Of a stretch of 64,000 nt of DNA, positions 5,035 through 63,421 are shown in pieces; the first letter of the stretch is position 1; every line of letters starts with the position of its first letter. The stretch is from a virus, in the IMG/VR virus record IMGVR_UViG_3300029922_000001, positions 230,512 through 294,511 of that record, one strand, 5' to 3'. The position numbers were made by a program, and so were the translations under genes. The notes under the pieces are model-generated. The model did no database searches, was not told the origin of the DNA, and saw nothing but the letters and a program-made list of their open reading frames with translations.

Positions 5035-6084
5035 TTCTTTCATACTACCTGGTGTTAGAATAATGTATTCAGAATTGTCTCTAAGTTCTGTAATTGTTCT
5101 AGCACCAGAATAGGTTAAACCAGAACGGATACCACCAACAATTTCTTCTACTACATCTTCAGTGTTGCCTTTATATAGAACTTGTTTATCAACACCTTCA
5201 GCGGCAATACCCTTTTTCATTCCACCGCGTAAATGTTCCTGTGCGGTCTTACTAGACATTCCATACATGATCTTGTAATGTTTGCCATCAGACTCAAAAA
5301 CATCGCCAGGAGAGGCACTAGTGCCACACAACATGCCACCTAAAGTAATAGTATCAGCACCAAAAGCTAAAGCCTTGACAATATCACCAGAAGTAGTAAA
5401 ACCACCATCACCAATAATTTTGACATTATTAAAACCACGATTCGTTAATGATTCTTTTGCTTCTATAATTGATGTAAGTGTTGGAACTCCAAAACCAGTT
5501 TGAGTTCTCGTACTACAAACTGAACCTCCACCGATTCCACAACGTATTGCATCAGCACCAGCGTCAGCAAGATATAAAGCACCTGAACCTGTAGCAACAT
5601 TTCCAGCAATAACTTCGATATCATAATGATCTTTAATGTATTTGATCATTTTCTTAACTGAGTTTGAGTGACCGTGCGCAATGTCAATTAAAATAGCATC
5701 GGGTTTAAGTTGAACGTCAGGAAAGCCGTAAGATGCATTCATGAGTTTATCCACTAGCTCACAATCTTCATCTTTAGTTCCTACAGATGGAACAATAATA
5801 GAATTAGGATATTTTACCCTAAAGTCCATTAAAGTAGCTACCATTTTGTCTGGATGCATAAATCTATGTAAGAACCCTAATGATCCTGTTTTATACATAG
5901 CTTCCAACATGTTCTCTTCAGTAACCGTTGACATATTTGTTGATATAATTGGAATATCTAATTTAATATTAGGTGTTAAATAAGTTGATACATCGGTTTT
6001 AAGTCTACTTTCAACATCGCTATATTGAGGGACTAATAGAATATCATTAAAAGATAGTGCTTTGTGATTGTATAGATTCGCCAT
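5017..6084 (-). CDS. IMP dehydrogenase / GMP reductase family enzyme (no CBS subdomain; GuaC-like length)
   Basis: Catalytic loop CGIGGGSVCSTR with the active-site Cys. TIM-barrel IMPDH/GMPR motifs throughout. 355 aa. Confidence 0.85.
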   Translation of the reverse strand: MANLYNHKALSFNDILLVPQYSDVESRLKTDVSTYLTPNIKLDIPIISTNMSTVTEENMLEAMYKTGSLGFLHRFMHPDKMVATLMDFRVKYPNSIIVPSVGTKDEDCELVDKLMNASYGFPDVQLKPDAILIDIAHGHSNSVKKMIKYIKDHYDIEVIAGNVATGSGALYLADAGADAIRCGIGGGSVCSTRTQTGFGVPTLTSIIEAKESLTNRGFNNVKIIGDGGFTTSGDIVKALAFGADTITLGGMLCGTSASPGDVFESDGKHYKIMYGMSSKTAQEHLRGGMKKGIAAEGVDKQVLYKGNTEDVVEEIVGGIRSGLTYSGARTITELRDNSEYIILTPGSMKESKLLS

Positions 6085-7980: not shown

Positions 7981-8156
7981 TAGATTTAATTGGTGAAAAA
8001 TTTGGAAGATTAATGGTTTTAAAACGAGAAAACTCCAAATGGCTATGTAAGTGTGAATGTGGAAATGAAAAGTTAATTTCTGGATGTAGTTTAAAAAACG
8101 GGAAAACTCAATCTTGCGGATGTCTACGTAGTAAACCATGCGAAGCTAGTTCTTGA
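7971..8156 (+). CDS. small Cys-rich (zinc-ribbon-like) protein
   Basis: CKCECGNE ... SCGC pattern. The ATG lies inside the upstream hairpin. Confidence 0.35.
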   Translation: MKLIDLIGEKFGRLMVLKRENSKWLCKCECGNEKLISGCSLKNGKTQSCGCLRSKPCEASS

Positions 8157-8279
8157 GTGGTTCTTTCTATTGAACTTTGTTGTATTCCGGTACAAGTGCA
8201 AACTTCAAAAACACAAAAACACAAAACACCACAACCGATGACGAATCTTGTAAAATCATTCCAATTAAATCTCATGATG

Positions 8280-8507
8280 TTATGATACCTGACTTTGTGG
8301 AATCCATACTTCAACTTTCGCAATACCAGCAGTAGGTTTTGAACAATTTCTAATGATTTCAGCGCATTCTTCAACTGTATCAACTTGATAAGAATTTTCA
8401 GGGAAAAATGTTCTTGCTGAATTAGGAGTAAATATATCAACACAATACTTATTTTCTAGGGATCTATCTCCACTCATGGCTTTTTCGAGAATTTTTTCTT
8501 TAGTCAT
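8280..8507 (-). CDS. hypothetical protein
   Basis: 75-aa ORF preceded on its strand by TTTATAATAAGTC-ATG. Confidence 0.4.
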   Translation of the reverse strand: MTKEKILEKAMSGDRSLENKYCVDIFTPNSARTFFPENSYQVDTVEECAEIIRNCSKPTAGIAKVEVWIPQSQVS

Positions 8508-8513
8508 GACTTA

Positions 8514-8741
8514 TTATAAATCAACTTTACACTTATTGTTAGTGCAATGACCTAAAGCGTCTTTTAATAGATAATTCTTAGCACCACGATCTTCATCACT
8601 CATAAGGCGATAATTTAATTTATCAATGCCTTCGTAACGAAATTTGAATTCGCTAATGATAGTTTCCATGAGTGTTTCAGCCATATCTGCTGATTCTTTT
8701 TCGTCTGTAAATAATGGGATGTCGATATGCAATCTGAACAT
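8514..8741 (-). CDS. hypothetical protein
   Basis: 75-aa ORF with a classical AGGAGA Shine-Dalgarno 7 nt upstream of the ATG. Confidence 0.5.
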   Translation of the reverse strand: MFRLHIDIPLFTDEKESADMAETLMETIISEFKFRYEGIDKLNYRLMSDEDRGAKNYLLKDALGHCTNNKCKVDL

Positions 8742-8759
8742 AATAATTCTCCTGTCTCG

Positions 8760-8833
8760 TGGTCCCTCTGCTGAGAATCGAACTCAGACCGAACCGTTAT
8801 AAGCGGTTCCGCTCTACCTTGAGCTACAAAGGG
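8760..8833 (-). tRNA. tRNA, anticodon UAU (Ile); CCA encoded
   Basis: Cloverleaf folded by hand: acceptor CCCTTTG/CAGAGGG, T-arm CTGAG-TTCGATT-CTCAG, anticodon stem AACCG/CGGTT with loop CTTATAA. Discriminator A is followed by an encoded CCA, then CGAG. Confidence 0.75.
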
Positions 8834-8996
8834 GTGTTTGTAATGGGTGTGGGGTTGGTATACGCTAATTAGCGTATACTTATGAAGCCAAACGCAGGAG
8901 AGTTCTGGGAAATATCATTATAGATTTGATAGTTTGACTTCATTACGTATCTATTATACCAGCATTTAGAGGAAAATTGTCTGAATTTCTATGTGT

Positions 8997-9233
8997 TTAT
9001 TGATATTCTACTGTTACTGTTCCGCTAACATCAACTTCTTTATGGTTATCTTTAGTGCAAAAATAATAAATACCACTTGAGAGATGAACTTCTCCATCAG
9101 AAGTATATTGATTGAGAATCTTGCCATCACTTGAATAAACCGTAACTTTGGAGTCAGTGTAATCTGCTCCACAACCGCACATGATTAACGAAAATAAGGA
9201 TAAGGTAAGAATAGAGATTGTAATTCTTTTCAT
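8997..9233 (-). CDS. small secreted/lipoprotein-like protein
   Basis: N-terminal signal peptide MKRITISILTLSLFSLIMCGC. Preceded by GGTATAATAAAACC-ATG on its strand. Confidence 0.4.
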   Translation of the reverse strand: MKRITISILTLSLFSLIMCGCGADYTDSKVTVYSSDGKILNQYTSDGEVHLSSGIYYFCTKDNHKEVDVSGTVTVEYQ

Positions 9234-15379: not shown

Positions 15380-15482
15380 AGCGGGTAGCGGAATTCGAAT
15401 CCGCATTTTAGCGTTCCTCTAAGTAAATATTTTAATATTTCTCACAGGCAACGCCATGTTCTAACCATTGAACTATATCCGC
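15380..15482 (-). tRNA. intron-containing tRNA, probable anticodon GCC (Gly); about 31-nt insertion in the anticodon loop; CCA encoded (15377..15379)
   Basis: Acceptor GCGGATA/TACCCGC with one mismatch. D-arm GTTC-AATGGTTA-GAAC. T-arm GCGGA-TTCGAAT-TCCGC. Anticodon stem TGGCG/CGCTA flanks TTGCC + 31 nt + AA. The insert contains an AAATATT/AATATTT hairpin. Confidence 0.55.
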
Positions 15483-44871: not shown

Positions 44872-44973
44872 TGAGCAAACAGGGACTTGAACCCTGATGA
44901 CATTTTACTGTCGATGGGTTAGCAAAATTCTGATCTTGCTAAGCCCATTGCGTCTACATTTCGCCATTCGCCC
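44872..44973 (-). tRNA. intron-containing tRNA-Leu (UAG), class II, 102 nt with an 18-nt insert in the anticodon loop
   Basis: Acceptor GGGCGAA/TTTGCTC. Anticodon stem ATGGG/CCCAT flanks CTTAG + 18 nt + AA. The insert forms the TTAGCAA/TTGCTAA helix with the anticodon. Variable arm GACA-GTAAAA-TGTC. T-arm CAGGG-TTCAAGT-CCCTG. Confidence 0.55.
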
Positions 44974-45417: not shown

Positions 45418-46764
45418 GTGAAACAAATTATTACAGCTAAATTAAAATTAGAAACAAATAAAGAACAATTTAAAGAATTAACTAATCTTAGTTTAGCTTA
45501 TTGTGGCGCTTTGAATTTTGGCTCTAATAAAGCCTTTGAATTAGACAAAACTACTAATGCTAACTTATTGCACAAAAGTATATATCGAGAATGTCGTGAT
45601 AAATTTGGATTACCATCACAATTAGCTTGTAGCGTTTCTAGATATGTTACTGCTTCTTATAAAACATTGTGGACAATTACCAATAAAAATATTAAAGCAA
45701 GAAAAAACAAAGAAACTAAGAGAGTTTATAAAGGACTGAATAAAGCTCCAAAATATATATCAAGAACGACTATGTTTCAATATGGTAGAGATTTTACATT
45801 CAAGAAGGATCAACAAATTAGTATTATTACTCTTAATGGAAGAATTCTTCTAGATTATAAAGGATGGAATAAACATCTTAATTTAATTAAAGATGAAAAT
45901 ACCAAAATTGGTGGAGCTAAACTTTATTATGATAAAGCTAAGAAAACTTTCTATCTCTTAGTTAGTTTAGAAATAGAAACACAAGAAGAAAAACAAATTA
46001 ACACAATAGGTATTGATTTGGGTCAAAGATATTTGGCTGTGGTAACTGATACACAAGATAATACATTGTTTATTCCTGGTAAGGAATGTATTAATCAAGT
46101 TGGAAAATATCAACGAGTTCGTAGTAGTCTTCAAAAAAAGATTAAAACGAATAAGAAAAATGGTAAAGGCACTCGTTCTATAACTAGAAAATTAATCCAA
46201 GTTAAAGGACAAGAGAGACGGTATAGATTATCATTAAATCATCAAACAGCAAGTTCGATATTACAAAGATTTCCTAATTCAAATATAGGATTAGAAAATC
46301 TTAAAGATATTAGAACAAGAACAGAAAGACATAGCAGTAAAAAAGATAGCAAAAAAAGAAAAGAAGCTAATCGTAATAAAGCTTCTTGGTCTTTTAATGA
46401 GTTACAACAATTAATAGAATATAAAGCTAATTTATATGGTAGTAAAATATTTAAAGTAGATGCCCATTATACATCTCAAATGTGTACTAAATGTGGTTAT
46501 ACTTCTAAAGAAAACAGACCTAAAAGTGGCTTGAATTTTATTTGTTGTAATTGTAATTTTAAATTACATGCTGATTTGATTGGAGCTAGAAATATAGCTA
46601 TGAGAACATTGTTATCTAGACAAGATTTAGATAATAAGGGGCATTTATCAATTGTCCCAGTAAGCGGCAAAGCCGCTTTAGATACCTCGAACAGTGAAGT
46701 TAAAGCGGAATCCTTGAAAAAGTATTCTGAATTGAGATGGAGTTCGGAGGCAAACTTAACTTAA
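45418..46764 (+). CDS. tnpB: TnpB (IS200/IS605 OrfB) RuvC-like RNA-guided-nuclease family protein (Fanzor/TnpB-like)
   Basis: RuvC-I IGIDLGQRYLAVVTD. RuvC-II ..SWSFNELQQLIEYKA. Zinc finger CTKCGY ... CCNCNF. RuvC-III HADLIGARNIAMR. GTG start in the track. Confidence 0.8.
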   Translation: MKQIITAKLKLETNKEQFKELTNLSLAYCGALNFGSNKAFELDKTTNANLLHKSIYRECRDKFGLPSQLACSVSRYVTASYKTLWTITNKNIKARKNKETKRVYKGLNKAPKYISRTTMFQYGRDFTFKKDQQISIITLNGRILLDYKGWNKHLNLIKDENTKIGGAKLYYDKAKKTFYLLVSLEIETQEEKQINTIGIDLGQRYLAVVTDTQDNTLFIPGKECINQVGKYQRVRSSLQKKIKTNKKNGKGTRSITRKLIQVKGQERRYRLSLNHQTASSILQRFPNSNIGLENLKDIRTRTERHSSKKDSKKRKEANRNKASWSFNELQQLIEYKANLYGSKIFKVDAHYTSQMCTKCGYTSKENRPKSGLNFICCNCNFKLHADLIGARNIAMRTLLSRQDLDNKGHLSIVPVSGKAALDTSNSEVKAESLKKYSELRWSSEANLT

Positions 46765-46830
46765 TTGCTAAGCATTTTGATAACGATCTTATTATACTCT
46801 TGTTTCTTCCTTTTTGCTATCTTTTCTAGA

Positions 46831-49854: not shown

Positions 49855-50547
49855 ATGGGAAAACAAAGTCGCCTAAGAAAAGAAAGAAAAGAGCGTCAAG
49901 AGAAAATCGCAATTGAGCAACCACAGTCTAGCTATTTACTAGAACCAGAACGTGCTGATTTAAGAACCGACTTAGGTGAAATTGCTGATTTTGCAGAGAC
50001 AATGCAACTAGATCAACTCAATAAGAAATTAAAGAAAATGATTGATTGGTTTAGAGGACATTTTGATGGCATCTGCACTACTATTAATGAAAATATTGTA
50101 GATATTGAAAATATTGGTATTTACAATGTTGACACAAACGAAGTAGAACCTTTGAAAGCGGCAAACATTGCTAAAGGACTATTAACACTTCCACCTTCAA
50201 GATTTCCTGTTGCACTAAAAGAACCTATCACAGAATCATTTGTTTCAGAAGATATAGATGCTATTGTTGACGAAACCAAAAACAACAAGATTCTAGATGA
50301 AATTACTATTGCTATTTTGAAGCTTGCTGAATGTAATAAAATTATGGCAGCAGCACAACAATTAGTTATGATGAATGATCTGCCATTAAATTTGGTTCAC
50401 GAAAAACTTGGCGACATCCGACTAGAGAAAGGTGACATGACTTATCCTTGCTATGAAATTACAGCAATTATGGCTGGTTTAATTGTTCTCGCTTCTGTTG
50501 GCAGTACCAGTTCATTTAATCCAAAGAATTTCCAATTTGTTCTATAA
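49855..50547 (+). CDS. hypothetical protein
   Basis: 230-aa ORF. Confidence 0.5.
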   Translation: MGKQSRLRKERKERQEKIAIEQPQSSYLLEPERADLRTDLGEIADFAETMQLDQLNKKLKKMIDWFRGHFDGICTTINENIVDIENIGIYNVDTNEVEPLKAANIAKGLLTLPPSRFPVALKEPITESFVSEDIDAIVDETKNNKILDEITIAILKLAECNKIMAAAQQLVMMNDLPLNLVHEKLGDIRLEKGDMTYPCYEITAIMAGLIVLASVGSTSSFNPKNFQFVL

Positions 50548-50575
50548 ACTTCATAACCTATTGTATAAATAGAAT

Positions 50576-51202
50576 ATGAAGTTTATCAAGAATTGGCTTG
50601 TAAAATTATTTAAACCTATTATTGATGAATTAGTACGTCAAAACATACAGTCCATTATTGACGATCTACATATTTATGTAGATCACGCGAAAAACGACAT
50701 CAAAAGTACATTAACTCATGATTTAAATGATTTTTCAGAACAAATAAGTGCAACAGAAAAACTAATACAACAAAAATCTAATACTATAGATAGTAAGTTA
50801 AGTGATTATGATTCAAAAATCAAACTTATAGATACCCATGTTATAGATTTTACTAATAGGTTTTCAAACACCACAGAACAAATTAAAGAAACACACAATC
50901 AAGCCATAGATAAAATTAATACAGAGCTAGGTTTGGCAATTCAAAAATCTTCAAGTAAAAACACTACAGATATGCTCAATGAGATTGACAGTTTACGTGA
51001 ATCTCTTAAAATGACTTATCGTGCTGTTGATGATGAACTTAACCGTGTTCATTTTAGAATCAAAGGTGTGGAAGTAATCACAGAAGCTGAACTAAAAGAT
51101 ATAGAAACAAAAACCAAGAACGAAGTAATTGGTCTTCTTGAATATATTGATAATAACTGTGTTTTGAGAGAAGGTGATTATATAAATAATCTAGAACATT
51201 AA
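50576..51202 (+). CDS. hypothetical coiled-coil protein
   Basis: 208-aa ORF. Its ATG lies inside the inverted repeat ACTTCATA...TATGAAGT. Confidence 0.5.
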   Translation: MKFIKNWLVKLFKPIIDELVRQNIQSIIDDLHIYVDHAKNDIKSTLTHDLNDFSEQISATEKLIQQKSNTIDSKLSDYDSKIKLIDTHVIDFTNRFSNTTEQIKETHNQAIDKINTELGLAIQKSSSKNTTDMLNEIDSLRESLKMTYRAVDDELNRVHFRIKGVEVITEAELKDIETKTKNEVIGLLEYIDNNCVLREGDYINNLEH

Positions 51203-51205
51203 ATT

Positions 51206-52018
51206 ATGAATATAAAAGTTAGTGGAATATATAGAATTATAAACAAAATAAACAATAAATCATATGTAGGAAGTTCTACAGATATACAAGATAGATGGTG
51301 GAAACATAGAAAAATGTTAAAAAATAATAATCATTCTAATCCTCATTTACAGGCATCATATAATAAATATTCAAGTGTTGTTTTTGATTTTGAAATATTG
51401 CAATCTATGCCAGGGGCAACCACTAAAGAACTCCAAGAAAAAGAATTATCATGGATGTTATTTTTAAATGTACATAATAATAAAAATGGGTATAACATTA
51501 ACGGAGTTGAAGGTTATAAAATAGGTTTTAAGCACACTGAAGAAACTAAAAAGAAAATAAGTGAATCTGTAAAAAACAGAACATACACAGAAGAACAATT
51601 GGAAAATTTAAGAAACAATTTAAGTAAAATAATTAACAATCCAGAAACGAAAAGGAAAATTTCAGAATCTAAAAAAGGAAAATTATTAACAAAAGAACAT
51701 AAAAGGAAAATTTCAGAATCTAAAAAAGGAAAATTATTAACAGAAGAACATAAAAGAAAAGTTGGTGATGGTAATCGCGGTAAAATAATAAGCGAAGACA
51801 CAAGAGAAAAACAAAAAATATCTATTTTAAACAATAAGGAATTTATGAACAAATTAATTAAAAAATGGATAATAATAAATCCTGATGGGGAAGAATATAA
51901 AATAGAAAATTTATCTCAATTTTGTAGAGATAATCAATTAAGAGATGGATGTATGTCTTTAGTTGCGCAAGGTAAAAGAAAATCACATAAAGGATGGAGT
52001 TGTTATGAAATTAAATAA
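51206..52018 (+). CDS. GIY-YIG homing endonuclease with NUMOD3-type DNA-binding repeats (T4 Seg-like)
   Basis: [18 protein letters not shown] ... R..H (GIY-YIG core). Tandem repeats [16 protein letters not shown](K/E)[24 protein letters not shown]. Confidence 0.8.
51655..51750 (+). repeat. direct tandem repeat (about 42 nt x 2.2) encoding the NUMOD3-like [14 protein letters not shown] unit inside the GIY-YIG gene
   Basis: AAAGGAAAATTTCAGAATCTAAAAAAGGAAAATTATTAACA.AGAACATAAAAG appears twice in succession. Confidence 0.6.
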
Positions 52019-52553
52019 TATTAACATTTTTTATACTGCGATCAAATTCACATTAAGTTTTGAGGGGTCATATAGTTTAAATAAAGATGATCCAGGTGGG
52101 GCTACAAACTATGGAATTATTCAATCTGAATATAATATCTATAGAAAATCTAAAAAACTACCAGAACAATCTGTTAAGTTAATTACAATAGTTGAAGTTA
52201 AAGATATCTATAAAAACAGTTATTGGTTGTCTGCCAAATGTGATAAATATCAAACAAAATTAGCTATTGTAATGTTTGATACCGCTGTTAATTTTGGGAC
52301 CGGTAGAGCCGCAAAATGGCTTCAAAAATCACTAGATGTTGCACAAGATGGTGCTATTGATCCAGCTACTTTAGCAAAATTAGCAAAAACAGATCAAGGA
52401 TTATTAGCCAATAGAATTTGTGAGTATAGAATTGCATTCAGATATGCAAGAGTAGCATCTGCGCCTAGTCAAAAAGTCTTTTTAAATGGTTGGCTTAATA
52501 GAGACAATGCACTTAAAAAACTAATTGGTGGGACTATCACTTTGGTTAGTTAA
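51963..52553 (+). CDS. GH108-type lysozyme-like N-terminal domain + peptidoglycan-binding (PG_binding_3-like) C-terminal domain; endolysin-like peptidoglycan hydrolase
   Basis: [20 protein letters not shown] is the GH108 catalytic-Glu motif. The C-terminus ..[11 protein letters not shown] resembles the PG-binding domain. The likely start is the internal ATG near 52005 (MKLNNINIF). Confidence 0.7.
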
Positions 52554-52684
52554 TTCTAATAAAAACATATCTATTTCTCTAGCAAAAGAAGTAAATAAAA
52601 TCTTTTTATTAGCTGGAGTTTCATTATTAATATACGCCATTAATGAAGCTGCTAATATAGAAGCCTCTTGTCAATTACCCACAG

Positions 52685-53794
52685 CTAAAGCAGTGGGCTT
52701 GTTACAACCGCGCTTTGCGCGGGAACAATAGGGATATTGACTAATCCCCTACATTGAATATTTAAGGAAGCATTATAATCAGCATTAGCAGCGAAGCTGC
52801 AAGATAAACATTTAAATTCACTCTGATTCTTCCTATTTTTCTTATTACAATATCCACAATGAGAACACGTCTGGGACGTGTATGCTGGATTAACAAGAAA
52901 AACAGGAACACCTTGTTCCTTGGCTTTATATTCAATAAACGATCTAAGTTGAGCGAAGCTCCAACTTAATCTTTCATTACGATTAGCTTTTCTGACCGTT
53001 ACTCTTTTATTGATTCCTTTTAACTCTTCTAGAGCTATACCAAATTGAGTGCCTTTAGCTTTATTAACTATTTCTTTGGAAATACAATGATTAACATCTT
53101 TTCTAAATCTTGATTCTTTATTTCCAATAGTTTTAATTCTTTTCTTTGCAGAGCGTGTCCCACGCTTCTGTAATCTCGTTCTGTGATCATGATATTTCTT
53201 TCTCTTATTTTCTATTTTATCAGAACTATAGATAGTATTATCAGAAGTAGTAGCAATATTTTTAACACCTAAATCGACTCCAATAATTCCTTTAGTATTA
53301 TATTTTTCTTCAGTTGGAGTTGGAATATCAAGAGTACATAATAAGTAAAATTTATTATTTTGAAGTACTAGATCAACTTGACCTTTTCTAAATTTAAATA
53401 ATTCATTATTCCATATTTGGATTGGAATATTCATTCTTCCTTCAATAGTCCAAATATTAACTATTTTATTATTTTTAAAAGTAATAACTCTGTCGTCATA
53501 GACGACAGCAGAAGTTTTCTTAAATGAATTAGGATATTTTCTATGTTTACTTATTTTATAAGAACAAGATACAACGTCAATAGCTCTAATGGTTAATTGA
53601 GAAGAAAATTCTTTATATTTTTCTCTTGAAGGATGATAAACAATTTTTTGCAATTGATTTTTATGAAATTGCCCAACTTTAAAAGCTTCTTCAGAAAATT
53701 CATTACAAATTTGATTAAAGACATTCATCGTGCCCAAGAGGGCACGATATTGATTATCATCTGTATTTAGCTTAATCTTCAATATTTTCTTCAC
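52685..53794 (-). CDS. tnpB: TnpB (IS200/IS605 OrfB) RuvC-like nuclease family protein, second diverged copy
   Basis: RuvC-I IGVDLGVKNIATTSD. RuvC-II ..SWSFAQLRSFIEYKA. Zinc finger CSHCGY ... CLSCSF. RuvC-III ADYNASLNI. Confidence 0.8.
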   Translation of the reverse strand: MKKILKIKLNTDDNQYRALLGTMNVFNQICNEFSEEAFKVGQFHKNQLQKIVYHPSREKYKEFSSQLTIRAIDVVSCSYKISKHRKYPNSFKKTSAVVYDDRVITFKNNKIVNIWTIEGRMNIPIQIWNNELFKFRKGQVDLVLQNNKFYLLCTLDIPTPTEEKYNTKGIIGVDLGVKNIATTSDNTIYSSDKIENKRKKYHDHRTRLQKRGTRSAKKRIKTIGNKESRFRKDVNHCISKEIVNKAKGTQFGIALEELKGINKRVTVRKANRNERLSWSFAQLRSFIEYKAKEQGVPVFLVNPAYTSQTCSHCGYCNKKNRKNQSEFKCLSCSFAANADYNASLNIQCRGLVNIPIVPAQSAVVTSPLL

Positions 53795-53961
53795 TATTAG
53801 TGTTATACATATTAATTAATGATATTCCTTCTTTTTGGTAAATATTTATTGAAAATATTTGGTTCGATTCCTCCCACGGCTGAAGACCGTGGGCTTCCTC
53901 TCACATTATCGTGAAGGTACTTCAATAGAGTTAGTTTTATTCCAGTAACAAGGATACCTAA

Positions 53962-54582
53962 TCATTTTTTCTGTCCATATCTATCAAAAACCTCAAGAGT
54001 ATCTTCATAGTTCTTACGATCTACTTCTTCTTGTTTGTAAGTTAATACCATTTTAACAATCTGATCTACTGTGTCTTCGCCTTCCATTTTTACAGAATGA
54101 TAGGTAATGCTATTTCTATCTAATACGTTTTTGATATCAGCATCTGCTTCTAGTGCCTTAGTTAAATCTTGATAACGACCTGATTCATCATAAGCTACCA
54201 AATCTAAGTTTCTTTCGATTAACACGTTGAAGTTATTAAACTCATTGAAAATTTCCACAATGTATGGTTCAAACAAAGAAGTACAACCAAACCCTTTATA
54301 GATAGTTCCCATTAAGATAGAAGTATCAGTGACGGCAATATCGACTTTACCAATAACTGGAATCATTTGACGCATATATTGTTTCACAGTAACGTATAAC
54401 TGATTTTTTATTTTATTATCTTCAGTCCAATATAAGTCTTTTGCGTATTCTGGAATATACTCAACATTAACCCCTTTTACCTTTAATTTATAAAATACAC
54501 CAGCAGCAACTGTTGATTTACCAATTCCAGGTCCGCCAAAAATGTTTATTATGATTGTATCTTTAATGTTGTGTGGCATCAT
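53962..54582 (-). CDS. P-loop NTPase, paralog of 1486..2070
   Basis: Walker A IFGGPGIGKSTVAAGVFYKL. Collinear with the 1486..2070 product. Confidence 0.5.
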   Translation of the reverse strand: MMPHNIKDTIIINIFGGPGIGKSTVAAGVFYKLKVKGVNVEYIPEYAKDLYWTEDNKIKNQLYVTVKQYMRQMIPVIGKVDIAVTDTSILMGTIYKGFGCTSLFEPYIVEIFNEFNNFNVLIERNLDLVAYDESGRYQDLTKALEADADIKNVLDRNSITYHSVKMEGEDTVDQIVKMVLTYKQEEVDRKNYEDTLEVFDRYGQKK

Positions 54583-54810
54583 GATAACTTATTATACGTT
54601 CACGATTTCTTTCGTTTCAGTCTGATATCATTCTCTTTTTTGGCATACATAATAAGGCATATAATAAATTAAGCTAGATATAAATATAAGAGGAATTTAT
54701 TTTTTGAAATTTTCAAAAAACCTGTAATTTCATTAAGTAATGAAGTATATTAATATTTTGGGTTATAACGATTAAACAAACTATTTACGCTTAGGTGTAT
54801 AATAGTAGTG

Positions 54811-55245
54811 ATGGTAGTACAAGACTTTTTTGAGATAATTGAAGATTTGTGTAGTAAATCTTTATCCTTTGTTATAGGAAATTCACATAATAAGAGCTAT
54901 AAAGCGATTTTAATGATCAATGATTTTGGAGAAGTGATTTATATAGCGGGTAAAGGGTTACTGCCAGTCACTAGAGAACACATAATTAAACGTATAGATG
55001 ATATCACCGAAACAATTTCCAGTATTATTATTACATCAGTTTTATCAGATGGTAGTAAAGAAATTTATGGTTTTTATCTAGAACGATGCGTTGACGGCTT
55101 TGTTTATAAAACAATCAATGCTTCCCATCTTTTTGCAATGTACAATACAAATATGGATAAGTCAATGGATTTACCTAAGATGAATGTGGTATATTGTGAT
55201 ATCAACGGAGATAGATACGCACCATTTGAACTAATAAGGAAATAA
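54811..55245 (+). CDS. hypothetical protein
   Basis: The track ORF starts at a GTG at 54808; the ATG follows at 54811. Preceded by GTGTATAATAGTAGTG. Confidence 0.45.
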   Translation: MVVQDFFEIIEDLCSKSLSFVIGNSHNKSYKAILMINDFGEVIYIAGKGLLPVTREHIIKRIDDITETISSIIITSVLSDGSKEIYGFYLERCVDGFVYKTINASHLFAMYNTNMDKSMDLPKMNVVYCDINGDRYAPFELIRK

Positions 55246-55246
55246 C

Positions 55247-55696
55247 TTGAGAATACTATTTTTAGATGACATGCCTGAACGCTATGACTACTTCATGGGT
55301 TTGTTGAACCGTCCAGATATTGAAGTTGATTGGGCTAAAAATGCTGATGAATTTTATCCGATGCTTGAAAATCCAAGATATGACATTTTCTTTTTGGATC
55401 ATGATTTAAGTGCAGAACATTACACTAAATTAAACACCCTAGATCAAGCAGATCATACAAAAATAGAATGTAAAGAAGAAACTGGATATGATATTACTAA
55501 ACGATTAATCCACTTACAAAAAGACAAACATCCTGATTATATTGTTGTTCATACACTGAATTCTCAAGGTGGTAAAAATATGATGTCTTGTTTAAGAGAA
55601 ATGGATTCAACTCTTATTCGCGCATATTTCGCATTTCCTGATTTTCAGAATGTGGTTTATCAACTCGCCCACCAAAAAATTAGTAAAACTAATTAG
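55247..55696 (+). CDS. hypothetical protein, possible receiver (REC/CheY-like) fold
   Basis: MRILFLDD ... DIFFLDHDLS ... YIVVHTLNSQGG resembles REC beta1/beta3/beta4 elements. This is a weak call. TTG start 2 nt after the upstream stop. Confidence 0.4.
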   Translation: MRILFLDDMPERYDYFMGLLNRPDIEVDWAKNADEFYPMLENPRYDIFFLDHDLSAEHYTKLNTLDQADHTKIECKEETGYDITKRLIHLQKDKHPDYIVVHTLNSQGGKNMMSCLREMDSTLIRAYFAFPDFQNVVYQLAHQKISKTN

Positions 55697-55890
55697 CCTA
55701 CATGAAATTCGGTGATACATTTATGTTCATCAATGTGGATTTGAAGTCGATCATTTCTGTACTGTTCAGCATATAGAAAGCCAGGTTTTCTAATTTCTGT
55801 TAGTAATCCACAATTCTTTTTGATTTCATCAATGACATCATCAAGTTTTTTGCCTATAAAATGTTCGTAACGAGTAGTCATGGTAATCAT
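55693..55890 (-). CDS. hypothetical small protein
   Basis: 65-aa ORF. Confidence 0.3.
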   Translation of the reverse strand: MITMTTRYEHFIGKKLDDVIDEIKKNCGLLTEIRKPGFLYAEQYRNDRLQIHIDEHKCITEFHVG

Positions 55891-56171
55891 ATAACCTCTG
55901 TGTTTTCTAAATCTTCTGGAACCTCTTCAATGGTATCTTGGTTTTCATTTTCCAATTCTTTCTTAATCATAGCAACAATTGATTTAGTTTGTTGATTAAA
56001 CATATAGTGACCTACTACATAGTCAGGAAAATATCCAAAATAACTAAAATATCTATTTTGGACTTCCTTACTTTCTGTAGACTTCTTTTTAATTTGATAA
56101 TCTAGCATACGTATATTATACCGCAGGTTGCCAGAATGAAACAAGAGATTTAGCTTGATCAACATCAACAT
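55887..56171 (-). CDS. hypothetical protein
   Basis: 94-aa ORF. Confidence 0.35.
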   Translation of the reverse strand: MLMLIKLNLLFHSGNLRYNIRMLDYQIKKKSTESKEVQNRYFSYFGYFPDYVVGHYMFNQQTKSIVAMIKKELENENQDTIEEVPEDLENTEVI

Positions 56172-56772
56172 CTAATCCAACAACTGTTTCTGATTGACCT
56201 TGTAGAACGTCCCAATCAGTATATGTTTTAGAATCTTCCCAACCAGGAGATTGAGCCATCCAGCCATAATGAGCCAAACCTTTACTCTTTAATACTCTAC
56301 ACACTTCACCAGAACCATAAACACCAACTAGGTAACCAGCAGCTTTAATAATTGGGTGAGCAATAGTGAAATATTCTGCTACAGCACCTTCAGCGGGAAG
56401 GTCAACATCAATAGCTAAATAAATAGCGATTTTAGGGTTATTAACGTCACCAGGAACACCTAGTGCTTTTAAAACAGCTACAGATTGTTCTGCGTGTGAT
56501 TTAGCATTTGAAGCAGTAAATGTACTTGCTGTATTACCCTCTTCCCAAACAAATCCACAAGAGATTTTCATGGTGTGTAATCCTGCGATTTCATTACTTT
56601 CAACTCTTTTATTCTTGAAATTAGCTGAATCTGGTGAAATGTAACGAATAACAAAATTGTATTTATCTGCATCAATTGTATGAGCTTTATTGTATACAGA
56701 ATAAGGAGTGTCAAAACCCTTATACATAACACTTGATTCTGAAAGAAATTCTTCTGATTGTTTGCTTAACAT
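56116..56772 (-). CDS. hypothetical protein (possible GH25-like/DUF1906-like TIM-barrel)
   Basis: 218-aa ORF. FVIRYISPD ... is weakly reminiscent of Rv2525c-like glycoside-hydrolase-like proteins. Confidence 0.5.
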   Translation of the reverse strand: MLSKQSEEFLSESSVMYKGFDTPYSVYNKAHTIDADKYNFVIRYISPDSANFKNKRVESNEIAGLHTMKISCGFVWEEGNTASTFTASNAKSHAEQSVAVLKALGVPGDVNNPKIAIYLAIDVDLPAEGAVAEYFTIAHPIIKAAGYLVGVYGSGEVCRVLKSKGLAHYGWMAQSPGWEDSKTYTDWDVLQGQSETVVGLDVDVDQAKSLVSFWQPAV

Positions 56773-56861
56773 AGTATTGTTATTTTAAATTTGCAATTAT
56801 TAATATCCTTTTTTATTTATTATCCATTTTTGATGATCGTTTGATGTATACTAGAATTATG

Positions 56862-57332
56862 GAAAATGAAGATAATGATCTTGCTGCAATTCTAGATGAA
56901 ATTGATGCAATTCCTTCTGAAAAAGAACTTAATCAGAGAGTTGAGGAAATCCTCAAGGAAGCTGGTGGTGTTAGAAAAATTAAAGATAAAACACTATATA
57001 CATTTGATGAAGCGGTAGCTGAGTGTGAACGTATGAATGCATATTCTAAAGAGTTTTGGCTTGAAAATAAATATAATGTTTGGGATTGTGAACATTATAT
57101 GAATATTCGTGCAGCTAATCCAAAAGCCCCATCAGATGGATATGCAATTCATTGGGGTTTAGATTATGCTTATAGACAAGCTGAAACCGGTAAAGTTCAC
57201 GTTTCCGCGTCAAACGTCTTGGCTGGTGATGGTAGGGCATATAATAAAGACGGTTCACTATATGAAATCCCAGAAGATATTTTAAGTAGAAAAGAATTTA
57301 GCGTTGATGAATTAGATTATATTTTCTGGTAA
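56862..57332 (+). CDS. hypothetical protein
   Basis: The track ORF begins at a TTG at 56841. The first ATG (56862) is preceded by GATGTATACTAGAATT, so the ATG start is preferred. Confidence 0.5.
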   Translation, partial: ENEDNDLAAILDEIDAIPSEKELNQRVEEILKEAGGVRKIKDKTLYTFDEAVAECERMNAYSKEFWLENKYNVWDCEHYMNIRAANPKAPSDGYAIHWGLDYAYRQAETGKVHVSASNVLAGDGRAYNKDGSLYEIPEDILSRKEFSVDELDYIFW

Positions 57333-57371
57333 ATATAGCATTATCATACGTTTGCTTGGTATAATCAATGT

Positions 57372-58250
57372 ATGATGAAATCAAAATCTCAAGAGGTGTG
57401 GATGCTACGCGGCGTCCCCGGCAGTGGAAAAAGCACTTGGGCAAAGGAATTTATTAAAAATAATCCTGGTTATGTTCGCACTAATAACGATGAAATTAGA
57501 CTTGAAATGTTTAATCGCGTTTTTGATAAGAATGATACTAAGGCTGTTGATGCTGAGCGAAACAGAGTTATTAAGGAAACCCTTGATAATGGTCTTAGTA
57601 TTGTTATTGATAACACTAATTTGTCACCTAAGCGTGAAGACGAATACAAGACGTTGGCGAAGAAGTATGGTGCTGAATTTAAGATTCAGTGTTTTATGCA
57701 TGTACCTTTACGTGATTGTTTGGCAAACAACTATAAGCGACCTAATCCGGTTGGTGAGAAGATTATCAAGGATATGTACAGACAGTTTGTAGAGCCTTTG
57801 TTGAAGCCAACTCCTGTTGAATATGTAGAGGGTTTAGAGGACGTGTACGTGTGCGATATGGATCAAACATTATCTTTAATGAAAGGAATTCGTGGACCTT
57901 TCGAATGGCATAAGGTTAATTTAGATTTACCAAATATTCCGGTAGTTAAATTAATTCAAAAACTTGCTAAGACAAATAAAATCATTATTATGTCTGGTAG
58001 GGATGGTTGTTGCCGTGATTTAACTATTGAATGGCTTAATCAACATGAAGTTCCGTTTTTTGAATTGCATATGAGGGCGATGAATGACTCTAGAAAGGAT
58101 AGTACTGTGAAGGAAGAACTTTATAAATCAAAATTACAATATCGTTTTAATATTCTAGGTTGGTTCGACGACCGCGAAGCGGTTTGTGAACTAGTTTATT
58201 CATTAGGATTACCACTGTTCCGTGTGGGGGACCCTCATAGTTCGTTTTGA
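57372..58250 (+). CDS. bifunctional polynucleotide 5'-kinase / 3'-phosphatase (T4 PseT-like): N-terminal P-loop kinase + C-terminal HAD phosphatase
   Basis: Walker A LRGVPGSGKSTWAKEF. HAD motif I CDMDQTLS (DxDxT) in the C-terminal half. Preceded by TTGGTATAATCAATGT-ATG. Confidence 0.75.
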   Translation: MMKSKSQEVWMLRGVPGSGKSTWAKEFIKNNPGYVRTNNDEIRLEMFNRVFDKNDTKAVDAERNRVIKETLDNGLSIVIDNTNLSPKREDEYKTLAKKYGAEFKIQCFMHVPLRDCLANNYKRPNPVGEKIIKDMYRQFVEPLLKPTPVEYVEGLEDVYVCDMDQTLSLMKGIRGPFEWHKVNLDLPNIPVVKLIQKLAKTNKIIIMSGRDGCCRDLTIEWLNQHEVPFFELHMRAMNDSRKDSTVKEELYKSKLQYRFNILGWFDDREAVCELVYSLGLPLFRVGDPHSSF

Positions 58251-58294: not shown

Positions 58295-58576
58295 ATGTTT
58301 AAATTCCTTAGAAATATATTTAGCAAAGAAGCTGAAGCTTCATGGGTACACTGTGGTACCTATTTAGACACCAATCATTATTACGCAGCAGATGATTGCT
58401 ATTGTGTGAACTGTTTACCTGATAGCCCAGCTTACTCTCTGGTTAAGGTGTTTAAAAAACACACTAGAGATAATAAATGGCAGATGAAGGAAACTATATT
58501 CGCATTATCTCTCGAAGAGTATCAAGGATATTCAAAGAAAATCCCTAACACTCTGATGCCACCACCTATTAGTTGA
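58295..58576 (+). CDS. small Cys-rich protein
   Basis: WVHCGTYLDTNHYYAADDCYCVNC. Confidence 0.4.
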   Translation: MFKFLRNIFSKEAEASWVHCGTYLDTNHYYAADDCYCVNCLPDSPAYSLVKVFKKHTRDNKWQMKETIFALSLEEYQGYSKKIPNTLMPPPIS

Positions 58577-59789
58577 GTGGTAATGGTGTTTCTTGTTTGT
58601 AAATGCTTTGGTCAGCGCATGAGCCAAGTGATTTATTTTTATCTCTTTCTTGTCTAAGGGTAATATTAATTGCGTCATTTCGTTGTTTTTGTCTTTTTAG
58701 TTCATGTTCTATTTTTTCTTTTTCTATCAATAATTTTTGATAATCTTTTTTAAGTGTTTTGAGATTTAAGCATTTATTTTCTGTATGAACTAATATCTTA
58801 ACTATGCCATAATCATTCATAATGCCAACTCCCATGTCAGCCAATACAGTCCAAGATGCTTCAATTTCATTAATATTTATATTTTTTTCAGAATTAAAAA
58901 TTGGATAAAAACCTGTTTCATTGGCGTAAGCCAGTGTGTCTATTAACTCTATAGGTCTTTTACCTTCGATATATTTATTTTCATATACTTTAATATCCTG
59001 TAATACATTAATTACTCCAATATATTCTTTTTTACTTAGTATATAAACAGCATTTTTAGGACATATAGTACAAACTAAAATTGGAATATTTTTATAATAA
59101 GCCCAAATAGGTGCTACTCCAACTTCGTGATTTTCAACATCGTAATTAGTTTTAATAAGTTCTTCGTGATCCCAACTTTCAACATGGCTCCACAAACAAG
59201 GGGACATTAAAATTGCTCCACGAGGTAGTCCATGTTGATCAATTAATGACAAAGCGAAATTTATGTTTTCTGGCTCCAATTTATCAATTACAGTTATTGA
59301 ATGGTCAGCTTCTACTGCTGCATTAACAACATTTAATACTAATGTATCTATTTGTCTCATTAAAGCATCTTTTGATCTTTCTAAAATATGTTTATGAGCA
59401 AGCTCTTTACTTTTAAAATGTTTATATAGCTCTCTGGATTCTTTTTTTGTTAATAATGGATAACTAGCCATAGTAACAGTGGGTATGGATAAAGCCTCTG
59501 GTTTTATATTGACAACTGGCACTGTTCCGCACGGATCACCACCAATTATATAAGCTTTAGAAGCTATGTCTCTCATATGATAAATACGAATATAATTATC
59601 TCTAAGATTATCATAGTATTCTTTAAGTTCTTCGTTTGTAAGTGTAAGATGAACATTATTATGTTTATGTTGATCTTGTTTTATTTTATGATGTTCTTTA
59701 ATTTCCGCTTCTGTGAAATCATCACGTTGTAAAATATGAAATGCCACCGGATTATAGGGTGCGCTAACAGGTATAGTACGTATATTCAT
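58569..59789 (-). CDS. hypothetical protein, tandem paralog of 59948..61045, C-terminal coiled coil
   Basis: Shared blocks NPVAFHILQRDD, CPKNAVYILSKKEYIGVI, NDYGIVKILV. Confidence 0.55.
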   Translation of the reverse strand: MNIRTIPVSAPYNPVAFHILQRDDFTEAEIKEHHKIKQDQHKHNNVHLTLTNEELKEYYDNLRDNYIRIYHMRDIASKAYIIGGDPCGTVPVVNIKPEALSIPTVTMASYPLLTKKESRELYKHFKSKELAHKHILERSKDALMRQIDTLVLNVVNAAVEADHSITVIDKLEPENINFALSLIDQHGLPRGAILMSPCLWSHVESWDHEELIKTNYDVENHEVGVAPIWAYYKNIPILVCTICPKNAVYILSKKEYIGVINVLQDIKVYENKYIEGKRPIELIDTLAYANETGFYPIFNSEKNININEIEASWTVLADMGVGIMNDYGIVKILVHTENKCLNLKTLKKDYQKLLIEKEKIEHELKRQKQRNDAINITLRQERDKNKSLGSCADQSIYKQETPLPLN

Positions 59790-59947: not shown

Positions 59948-61045
59948 CTACTCTATTTCATCGTCAAATATTTTAGTTTCAAGTTTTTGTATTGTACGCT
60001 TTAAATTTCTAATCTCATGTTTTAGTTCCCAATTTTCTTCTTCTAATTGTTTAAGATCAGATTCTTCCTTAGTGGAATAGTTAACTAAAATTCTAGCAAT
60101 AGTCCAGTCATTCATAACATGAACACCAACTCTGGCTGATACAATCCAAGATTTTTCTAAAGTGTCAGCTAATTCCTGAGTGCATTCAAGTTGATAACCA
60201 TTAGATGATTTAGACAATTTTGTGTTATGCCATCGTAATGGGTTTATATCACTTTCATTAGTTCGTACTGTGGATATAAATTCAACTGGAGCAACTTCAA
60301 TATCTTGTTCAACTGGAATTGTACCAATATACTCTTTTTTGCTTAATATATAAATGGCGTTTTTAGGGCACATATTTGATACATAAATAGGAACATTTTT
60401 ATAATGTCCCCAAATGGGTGGTGTATCAATATTTGGATCTTCAATATCGTAATTAGTGTAAGTTAGAGGAACAATTTCTTCGTCGGTGCCAACTCCCCAA
60501 TCTTCAATATCACGCCATCTAGCACTGTGCATTACAATTGCTCCACGAGGTTGTTCGTGAGAGTCTAGTAAATATAAAGCTAAGTTAAGATTGCATGGTT
60601 GTAATGTTCCAACAACAGATATACAGTGTTCACCTGGAACTGCTGCATTAATTGTCATAAATAATTCAGTGTCTATTTGTCGTCTGACACTATCTTTAAA
60701 ACGTTCAATAATTTGTTTTTCTACATTCTCTAGACTTCCATAAGCTTTAACTAAATTTGGAACTTCTTTTTTTTGCAGAATAGGATTTGAGGCAATAGTG
60801 CGACACTGTACAAAAAGTTGTTCAGTTTCTATAGGTTGAGGTCGTAATTCATTATTTCCAATACTATTGGGAATATTGTTGAGAACATAGGATTTAGCAG
60901 AAATGTCTGTTGAATAAAAACAGTTTTGAGGGTTGGCGATTTCTTCAATGGTACGATCATCACGTTGAAGTAGATGAAAGGCTACTGGGTGATACCAGAC
61001 AGCGTTACGAATAACACGTTGTTTCATAATAGATACCTTTGACAA
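59948..61045 (-). CDS. hypothetical protein, tandem paralog of 58569..59789
   Basis: Shared blocks HPVAFHLLQRDD, CPKNAIYILSKKEYIGTI, NDWTIARILV. Confidence 0.55.
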   Translation of the reverse strand: MSKVSIMKQRVIRNAVWYHPVAFHLLQRDDRTIEEIANPQNCFYSTDISAKSYVLNNIPNSIGNNELRPQPIETEQLFVQCRTIASNPILQKKEVPNLVKAYGSLENVEKQIIERFKDSVRRQIDTELFMTINAAVPGEHCISVVGTLQPCNLNLALYLLDSHEQPRGAIVMHSARWRDIEDWGVGTDEEIVPLTYTNYDIEDPNIDTPPIWGHYKNVPIYVSNMCPKNAIYILSKKEYIGTIPVEQDIEVAPVEFISTVRTNESDINPLRWHNTKLSKSSNGYQLECTQELADTLEKSWIVSARVGVHVMNDWTIARILVNYSTKEESDLKQLEEENWELKHEIRNLKRTIQKLETKIFDDEIE

Positions 61046-63010: not shown

Positions 63011-63421
63011 GGGTTGACTAATTCTGTGAAGATGGTGGTATAATAGATACGTGATAACAAGTGGGCTCGTAAGGGAATCGACATGTTGCATATATTGATG
63101 AACTTGAGTGAGAGATTACCCTTGGCTCTCTAAAAATGGGTAGAAAACATAAACGGCAAATCATATGCTTATGTAGGTTAATTCCTACCGCAAAAAATAA
63201 AGGTTAGTTGAGGACACTTTATTGAGCGTTGAAAAAATTCAACTACGCTATTAGGGTTGGTGGACCTTGGACCTGAAATAGTTAAATTAATCAAGTATCC
63301 GGTTGCAGCGGTTTGATTTATACCAACATGCTTCCTATTAAATAAATCTACGCTCATAAAAAATAATTATTGGTATATCAGTAATGGAAACGGCTTCGAG
63401 TGCCGTCGGGTCCACCCGCGA

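Follow-up and report, generated by a model that had tools for sequence, protein, structure and literature searches.

What kind of mobile element does the second tnpB gene in a long stretch of viral DNA belong to, and what is the role of the two GC-rich palindromes at its 3′ end? The stretch in question, referred to as the window, comprises 64,000 nt of the IMG/VR record IMGVR_UViG_3300029922_000001 and encodes two TnpB proteins, TnpB1 and TnpB2. A first-pass annotation had singled out tnpB2 on the minus strand, assigned it to 52560-53794 and proposed that its palindromes form part of a TnpB-associated guide-RNA scaffold. Overall, the analysis described here indicates that positions 52670-53910 very probably constitute a complete, non-autonomous, tnpB-only element of the IS200/IS605 family that includes a guide-RNA scaffold and for which we infer a homing mechanism. 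The tnpB2 gene indeed lies within the interval annotated initially; the interval extended about 110 nt into the flank past the right end (RE), however, and missed the 116-nt left end (LE, 53795-53910) together with its hairpin.

The gene and the two palindromes are located as follows.

52685..53794, minus strand: tnpB2 open reading frame (ORF), 369 amino acids (aa), with a GTG start and a TAG stop (52687-52685) in the loop of palindrome 1
52678..52697, minus strand: palindrome 1, the RE subterminal hairpin and final stem of the predicted scaffold, with the stop codon in its loop
52708..52722, minus strand: palindrome 2, a hairpin capping stem 2 of the predicted scaffold

The TnpB2 gene is intact. 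The protein matches the Pfam families OrfB_IS605 (1.4e-11) and Cas12f1-like_TNB (7.9e-24) and PHROG transposase families, while its best PDB matches are Cas12f structures over the half containing the RuvC and zinc-finger domains (9nzq, 1.3e-28; 8hr5; 8j1j), with ISDra2 TnpB structures matched more distantly (8bf8/8h1j, E 1.9e-9). The RuvC residues D174, E256 and D339 and the zinc-finger cysteines C310, C313, C329 and C332 are invariant among 37 homologues. Homologues with E ≤ 1e-20 number 3124, the best being 73% identical; in representative bacterial and archaeal genomes only one near relative was found, 65% identical and located on a truncated contig, which gave no assignment to a host. TnpB2 thus shares the RuvC and zinc-finger half with Cas12f (type V-F) but differs from it in the absence of a CRISPR array (a search of 52400-54100 found no repeat-spacer array), in a single guide that would be set by the insertion site, and in being carried within a transposon that has an LE and an RE. 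The hallmarks of TldR, a nuclease-dead TnpB-derived repressor, were not found either: TnpB2 retains its RuvC catalytic residues, and the element has kept its LE as well as its RE.

Both palindromes were recovered on re-reading of the sequence. Palindrome 1, CCCACAGCTAAAGCAGTGGG, is imperfect and consists of 5 bp, one A/A mismatch and a further 2 bp closing the loop TAAA; palindrome 2, CCGCGCTTTGCGCGG, forms a perfect 6-bp stem with a 3-nt loop. They are GC-rich for this genome, as had been stated: the 82-nt block 52670-52751 that contains them has a GC content of 0.49, compared with 0.33 for the whole 64-kb window and 0.30 for the tnpB2 ORF. Palindrome 1 carries the TAG in its loop; palindrome 2 is coding sequence within the tnpB2 ORF, 21-36 nt ahead of the stop. 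The sequence of palindrome 2 differs in almost every relative while its hairpin form is kept (e.g. GGCTCAAATTGAGCC, GCCGCTCACGCGGC and TCAGATTATTCTGA); its role is that of a structural cap whose sequence is free. The pattern CCCAC-N(4-14)-GTGGG has just two sites in the 64 kb (0.09 are expected, and none of 100 shuffles reached two). One of them, at 52678-52697, is palindrome 1, the other lies at 53873-53893, and the two flank tnpB2. Two similar hairpins that bracket a tnpB gene on the same strand are a signature of IS200/IS605 ends, a role that the first-pass annotation had overlooked along with the lack of a tnpA gene.

Hairpins rich in GC that lie where two convergent genes meet could also be rho-independent terminators, common to the endolysin gene and tnpB2 and devoid of any guide-RNA function. 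We consider this highly improbable and have rejected it. No T-run follows these hairpins, whichever strand is read, a terminator scan reported four other sites in place of these hairpins, and palindrome 2 lies within an ORF. A terminator would require no mate at the left end, and the structure stays with the gene among entirely different neighbours and terminates at the boundary of the mobile unit.

The boundaries of that unit can be placed by comparison with relatives, and the element ends comprise the following features.

53911..53915, minus strand: transposon-adjacent motif (TAM) TTCAC, the insertion target directly 5′ of LE, from the flanks of relatives and the start of pairwise BLASTN matches
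53795..53910, minus strand: LE, composed of 17 nt, GGAAG, the subterminal hairpin, AGGAATCG and an A/T-rich leader to the GTG, a layout kept in relatives
53873..53893, minus strand: subterminal hairpin of LE, reading CCCACGGTCTTCAGCCGTGGG on the minus strand; counterpart of palindrome 1, located 79 nt ahead of the tnpB2 start
52670..52675, minus strand: AUUGAC, the last bases of the element and 3′ half of the predicted pseudoknot, holding the end motif TTGAC (52674-52670)

The loci fetched for this purpose included 80 metagenomic, eight genomic and two viral sequences; the edges were derived from the aligned 3′ and 5′ regions of about 25 loci (52-71% identity), and the TAM from a tally of about 35 relatives. 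On the left side, similarity begins after TTCAC, TTCAT, NTCAC or TTCAA, and the relatives share an order of about 17 nt, GGAAG, the hairpin and AGGAATYG. On the right side, all aligned sequences have TAGGG...CAGTCAAT...CCTATTG, a variable hairpin, TTGTAGCAAG, a CCCAC..TTTAG..GTGGG hairpin and TA(A/G)TTGAC in common, and similarity ends directly after TTGAC. In all, some 25-40 relatives were aligned across these two edges, defined by TTCAY on the left and TTGAC on the right. Since similarity starts after TTCAC and stops after TTGAC, the element runs from 53910 to 52670 on the minus strand, measures 1241 bp and is inserted 3′ of TTCAC in an intergenic spacer. No inverted repeats are formed by its ends, GATAATGTGAG... 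and ...GGGTAATTGAC, and a direct reading of the flanks (...CCTTCAC and AAGAGGC...) reveals no target duplication. A search for LE and RE, which had been suggested in the first-pass annotation, has therewith been productive for TnpB2 in that both ends and their matched hairpins were found.

Pairwise BLASTN between copies residing in unrelated flanks spans only a unit of about 1.26 kb, with 97% identity between L013 and L014 (2350-3621), 96% between L015 and L018, and 94% between L033 and L034; such near-identical units in unrelated flanks demonstrate mobility at the level of the family. The LE and RE hairpins, moreover, co-vary within elements, with a mean identity of 0.73 between the two hairpins of one element and 0.54 between non-self pairs, and in 16 of 18 elements the own RE hairpin is one of the three best matches. 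This is expected if one transposase reads both. By eye, the bases 5′ of the hairpins showed no consistent rule of pairing with the cleavage sites of the kind known from IS608.

Two further observations concern the relatives' insertion loci. Three pairs (L030/L031, L041/L042 and L018/L024) have the element and one flank in common while the other flank is wholly different, which could be due to recombination at the element or to assembly chimeras across a repeat. In L041 (2162-2597), and at the same place in L042, a hairpin-rich insertion of 435 nt without a match to any Rfam family splits tnpB in an element that is otherwise 94-99% identical to that of L037.

The proposal that the palindromes belong to a guide-RNA scaffold was examined with the 3′ region of the same family, in which the following features are predicted.

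52670..52751, minus strand: conserved core of the predicted omega RNA scaffold together with RE, 82 nt (alignment A2, covariance model)
52749-52744 paired with 52735-52730, minus strand: scaffold stem 1
52728-52724 paired with 52703-52699, minus strand: scaffold stem 2, which encloses palindrome 2 and is followed by palindrome 1
52736..52741, minus strand: stem 1 loop GUCAAU, 5′ half of the pseudoknot, pairing with 52675-52670
52788..52800, minus strand: possible further upstream stem GCAGC-TTC-GCTGC within zinc-finger codons, of low confidence

Alignment A2 contains 23 non-redundant, diverse right ends. RNAalifold yields three helical elements (stem 2 as the enclosing helix, and two stem-loops), and 11 of the 19 pairs exhibit compensatory changes; the pseudoknot between the stem 1 loop and the last six bases was added to this fold. 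With the pseudoknot included, 96.7% of the alignment cells are able to pair, compared with 81% in shuffles and 29-52% when the partners are slid, double changes are present in 12 pairs, and the covariation score was reached by none of 500 shuffles. In the pseudoknot helix itself (alignment positions 11-16 with 88-93) 99.3% of cells pair, a G-C pair is replaced by A-U in L033 and, by eye, also in L019, L035 and L059, and the other end of the helix features U-A, U-G or C-G. The single-sequence fold is more stable than those of shuffles (z -2.97). A closing helix in this fold, UCAAU/AUUGA, was discarded and the loop pseudoknot preferred, since relatives do not conserve the upstream UCAAU. The variants of the possible upstream stem (GCGGC/GCCGC, GTGGC/GCCAC and GCAGC/GCTGC) pair in part of the family only.

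A covariance model of the core, R1, scores 75.8 bits at this locus, its only match in the window with E < 0.3; the next best match attains only 11 bits, and therefore the window contains neither solo nor gene-less copies and the 3′ end of TnpB1 represents a different scaffold. Rfam, in turn, has no family for this scaffold RNA, only tRNAs reaching the gathering threshold in the window. Taken as sequence evidence, the 3′-terminal 82 nt form a predicted, conserved structure of four helices plus a pseudoknot that ends at the element boundary, and their identity as the guide-RNA scaffold of TnpB is well supported. The initial proposal has thus held up: the two palindromes account for two of four helices that are conserved, with abundant compensatory changes, in 23 diverse relatives and that end where the element ends. 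Palindrome 1 would have two functions: as DNA it would provide TnpA with a hairpin, and as RNA it would provide TnpB with a stem.

The structure could alternatively act on the plus strand, as an IscB-type RNA resembling HEARO (RF02033), or it could act purely as single-stranded DNA for a transposase. Positions 1-52 of the HEARO model do align to 52670-52741 on the plus strand and start exactly at the boundary, whose placement is thereby checked independently (22.8-28.4 bits, E 0.002-0.006); this part of the model contains GUCAA, a CCCC..UAAAG..GGGG hairpin, CUUG and a closing ..UUGAC, and mirrors the right end of the TnpB2 element in its end motif, hairpin and long-range helix. However, only a quarter of the model is matched, and on the opposite strand, the score falls far short of the gathering threshold of 83 bits, and no IscB gene is present. 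Strandedness is informative in this respect. The G-U pairs 3:22, 16:88 and 62:86 are near-invariant, which places the structure on the tnpB sense strand; on the plus strand all three would be C-A mismatches. A function in single-stranded DNA alone does not explain the variable hairpin and stems 1 and 2, which are located deep inside the element and beyond the known requirements of IS200/IS605 transposases. Either variant is therefore scarcely credible, and the HEARO match is better read as a shared module, suggesting that IscB and the TnpB2 lineage have a mirrored transposon-end module in common.

With ends and scaffold in place, the classification of the element depends on the transposase. 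No tnpA was found in the 64-kb window by tblastn with IS608 and IS200 TnpA probes, and only 116 nt separate the TAM from the tnpB2 start. The same probes detected tnpA beside the distant relatives L045, L062 and L086 and found none near any close TnpB2 relative. The element hence lacks the internal tnpA of autonomous IS605- or IS608-type elements and, as no tnpA is found in the window, is non-autonomous; it possesses the features of tnpB-only (IS1341-like) members of the IS200/IS605 family, i.e. a TnpB with the catalytic triad and CxxC..CxxC, subterminal palindromes on the same strand and a specific target of 4-5 nt. It is important to point out that this is a well-formed but ordinary case of a very common kind of mobile element.

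Several observations weigh against this interpretation. The TnpA search relied on IS608 and IS200 probes and extended over a 64-kb portion of a contig no shorter than 441 kb. The variable positions in the pseudoknot are few, and four of its six pairs never vary. The LE in the window lacks a segment of about 25-40 nt found in most relatives. No empty site for the window copy emerged from the IMG/VR searches or among all fetched loci, and the copy is 100% identical in all three assemblies that carry it; in view of these two results its own mobility is putative. The IMG/VR empty-site and target searches returned 10 matches for ACCTTCACAAGAGGCT and three for TCAYAAGAGGCTTCTATA, numbers close to chance, and the matches inspected (L093; L111-L113) have unrelated flanks. 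A synteny search via the neighbouring AAA_28 gene returned a single relative (37% identity). When 50000-58000 was compared by Megablast with 50,697 phage records, zero matches were obtained, and therefore there is no near isolate that could supply an empty site.

The absence of tnpA from the window, the identity of the copy in three assemblies, the shorter LE and a gene fully adapted to the phage in its GC content (0.30) are also what a fixed, domesticated or decaying passenger would display, be it a weapon against competitor genomes, a regulator (TnpB-derived repressors are known) or a relic, with hairpins that persist by recent ancestry only. We regard this as improbable, if less so than the terminator or the HEARO-like RNA. 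The catalytic triad is intact, unlike in nuclease-dead derivatives, and both transposon ends are intact and matched. The hairpins are GC-rich within a gene of 30% GC, which argues for selection on structure. Finally, the guide predicted below is local flank whose only exact viral matches in IMG/VR occur at chance number and in unrelated sequence.

How, then, would a complete tnpB-only element maintain itself? The relevant feature is the sequence directly beyond the RE.

52650..52669, minus strand: predicted guide segment AAGAGGCTTCTATATTAGCA, the flank directly 3′ of RE, with an assumed length of 16-20 nt

The predicted guide would read AAGAGGCTTCTATATT... from 52669 downward, and no other site in the window matches it with fewer than two mismatches. 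In a homing mechanism of the kind published for TnpB, the tnpB transcript would be processed to a guide RNA made up of the scaffold and about 16-20 nt of flank (AAGAGGCTTCTATATT...), and the complex of TnpB and this RNA would cut TTCAC followed by AAGAGGCTTC..., which corresponds to the uninterrupted insertion site. Such a vacant site, with the predicted junction ...GAAGTACCTTCAC|AAGAGGCTTCTATATT..., may arise upon excision or may exist in a co-infecting phage genome devoid of the element, and recombinational repair from the occupied copy would reinstate or spread the element. At the occupied site the motif adjoining the guide sequence is TTGAC and not TTCAC, which would protect this site from cleavage. 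Distinct TAMs and encoded end motifs have been described for Geobacillus and Sulfolobus elements, where the same logic applies. Movement to new sites would require a Y1 transposase (TnpA) acting in trans on both hairpins in single-stranded DNA. Nuclease activity, RNA expression and mobility are predicted properties of this copy.

The comparison with characterized systems supports individual parts of this scheme. ISDra2 TnpB from Deinococcus radiodurans is, like TnpB2, a nuclease of about 400 aa with RuvC and zinc-finger domains, its scaffold overlaps the 3′ end of tnpB and stops at the RE, and the 5-nt motif 5′ of its target is the transposon insertion site. In the ISDra2 RNA the bases that directly precede the guide form a pseudoknot with a segment located about 70-100 nt further upstream (PMC10097598), and a pseudoknot adjoining the guide is likewise predicted for the TnpB2 RNA. 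The motif differs, however (TTGAT in ISDra2, TTCAY for TnpB2), and the TnpB2 element has a shorter core (82 nt resolved), no adjacent tnpA and a huge-phage host. ISGst elements of Geobacillus stearothermophilus also lack tnpA, have conserved LE and RE palindromes and a TAM that is not identical to the transposon-encoded motif (TEM), and their proposed role is that of an RNA-guided homing nuclease that restores the element. They belong to another TnpB clade with another scaffold, and no partner TnpA has been identified for the TnpB2 element, whose vacant target, in a virus, could be a co-infecting genome and not a sister chromosome. IS608 of Helicobacter pylori, on which the mechanistic understanding of IS200/IS605 ends is modelled, resembles the TnpB2 element in its imperfect, subterminal hairpins, located on the same strand at both ends, its insertion 3′ of a short specific sequence, and its lack of inverted terminal repeats and target duplication, but it carries tnpA, and the pairing known there between bases 5′ of each hairpin and the cleavage sites is not seen as a consistent rule here.

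The second question raised by the locus is whether the two tnpB genes of the window share a recent origin.

45418..46764, plus strand: TnpB1, 448 aa, a different TnpB clade with the same two Pfam domains as TnpB2
46636..46781, plus strand: putative TnpB1 guide-RNA scaffold with an AT-rich end hairpin, CTTAAC-TTAATT-GCTAAG, followed by TTGAT (46777-46781)

TnpB1 and TnpB2 are 31% identical (136/432, E 3e-44), far below the 80% above which the first-pass annotation would have seen a simple duplication, and tblastn of the window found no third TnpB copy. The two genes probably represent separate insertions of related element types, as that annotation had argued, because each has much closer relatives elsewhere (73% for TnpB2, 66% for TnpB1) and the R1 model finds no match at the 3′ end of TnpB1. 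In addition to its best relative at 66% identity, TnpB1 has others from Ktedonobacteria and cyanobacteria, and its residues D200, E293 and D386 and the four cysteines are invariant. The idea of two potentially programmable nucleases is likewise consistent with what both genes encode, namely D-E-D and four cysteines, and with a predicted structured 3′ region ending in TTGA(C/T).

The right end of TnpB1 rests on five sequences, with a boundary accurate to about ±2 nt. Its end hairpin is followed by CATTTTGAT and, as in TnpB2, holds the stop codon in the loop; the loop TATCAA, located upstream, complements the end. At the corresponding position four relatives terminate in GCCCCACCCCTTGTGGGTGGGG-TAATTGAC, a right end of the type seen in TnpB2, and the long stem shows covariation. 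The RE hairpin of these relatives is GC-rich (CCCCACCCCTTGTGGGTGGGG), whereas the window copy keeps the form in a changed and weakened sequence; its left hairpin, CCTCCTAATAGTAGGAGG, is unlike its own right hairpin, and with four relatives the left boundary and the TAM could not be placed. Judged by these features TnpB1 looks like the more eroded copy. Paired nearby TnpBs recur in these phages: a relative on a 252-kb contig (L115) has TnpBs at 4211-5407 and 8001-9077, one a TnpB2 relative and the other with HTH_OrfB_IS605, which lie 2.6 kb apart with an intein-containing clamp-loader gene between them.

In which genomes does the lineage reside? The source of the window is a huge phage, as evident from its tRNAs (more than 11) and one transfer-messenger RNA (tmRNA) in Rfam and ARAGORN scans, a head-like protein and endolysins, and the contigs of 441 kb and 522 kb on which the exact TnpB2 protein is recorded; a polynucleotide kinase, lysis genes and a GIY-YIG homing endonuclease are also encoded. 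Identity to the window is 100% over 21 kb in an ENA assembly and over 3 kb in a Logan assembly. Relatives of TnpB2 are located on contigs of 248-479 kb (L114, L115 and L119), and another copy of the P0080 protein is found on a 379-kb contig. The long contigs of relatives yield few Pfam matches, mostly phage-typical (lysozyme, ThyX, chaperonins, ribonucleotide reductase, RecA, primase and sigma factors), and in L114 tRNA arrays accompany a tmRNA. Genes homologous to those of the window were found in the flanks of eight relatives whose TnpB is 41-71% identical (L013, L018, L033, L034, L052, L057 and two more); these genes are 26-55% identical to their window counterparts, or 26-64% once the three long contigs, on which such homologues also occur, are included. 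Since the relatives' contigs are phage-like and their flanks encode window-gene homologues, the TnpB2 lineage seems to move among related freshwater huge phages.

A more specific scenario is tentative, and we hold it to be doubtful: the lineage may circulate in tRNA-rich, tmRNA-bearing freshwater huge phages of 250-520 kb and spread without any transposase, by RNA-guided cutting of vacant sites in co-infecting phage genomes and subsequent recombinational copying. The element may then act like the free-standing homing endonucleases of T4-type phages and mark breakpoints of gene exchange. Hints in this direction are the phage-like long contigs of relatives, the window-gene homologues in the relatives' flanks, the pairs that share one flank only and the lack of tnpA near close relatives. 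TnpB-like genes have been noted before in huge phages and cyanophages, and transposase-independent homing into co-infecting phages has been proposed in a review; the idea of 'non-restorative homing' was raised in a 2026 review (PMC13565253).

The locus adds a clean case to the tnpA-less TnpB elements of huge phages; it leaves the established picture of TnpB as it was. In prokaryotes and their viruses, few genes are commoner than those of such elements. Its value is one of definition. The element is fully delimited, with exact ends, TTCAY and TTGAC motifs, a covariation-supported scaffold with pseudoknot and a predicted guide, and this is enough detail to synthesise and test a compact, 369-aa predicted RNA-guided nuclease from an AT-rich virus. 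Since the vacant target may be a rival genome, 'non-restorative homing' becomes testable in a virus.

The contigs of relatives contain additional elements. In L015, L016 and L017 (527-2307; freshwater, with a TnpB2 relative at 65-66% identity) seven 28-nt repeats, ATATGACCCACACACGTGGGGAATGATG, with unique spacers of about 33 nt are directly followed by a TnpB/Cas12f-like ORF of 463 aa (916-2307), and a TnpB2-type element begins 54 nt later. This locus has the appearance of a CRISPR-like array in miniature, accompanied by an effector the size of a TnpB, and the repeat hairpin resembles the left-end hairpin and AGGAAT motif of the element. A group I intron (Rfam, 63 bits) is found in L015 at 5295-5487, beside two tRNA genes and about 1.7 kb downstream of the TnpB2-type element.

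The immediate neighbours of the TnpB2 element in the window are the following.

53962-54582: AAA_28 kinase-like gene, flanking the TnpB2 element
51963-52553: GH108 endolysin gene, on the other flank and convergent with tnpB2
51206-52018, plus strand: GIY-YIG homing endonuclease with NUMOD3, one gene away from the TnpB2 element

The 3′ end of the GIY-YIG gene overlaps the start of the endolysin ORF, and two kinds of selfish nuclease, GIY-YIG and TnpB2, are thereby contained within 2.6 kb. A 39-aa ORF called by the source assembly (52521-52640, minus strand) starts 30 nt past the right end of the TnpB2 element and overlaps both the downstream flank of the predicted guide and, in antisense, the 3′ end of the endolysin gene; it may be spurious. 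Further away, neighbouring ORFs at 58569-59789 and 59948-61045, both on the minus strand, are paralogous and share motifs such as PVAFH(I/L)LQRDD, and the former matches a PHROG major-head family. Rfam reports two tRNA-like genes of about 102 nt, at 15380-15482 and 44872-44973 (both minus strand), neither of which is reported by ARAGORN; the former has a 35-nt insertion in the anticodon region that may be an intron. The phage tmRNA is located at 63063-63416 on the plus strand and encodes the tag peptide GKSYAYVG, and another is present in the related 478-kb contig L114 (5578-5932).

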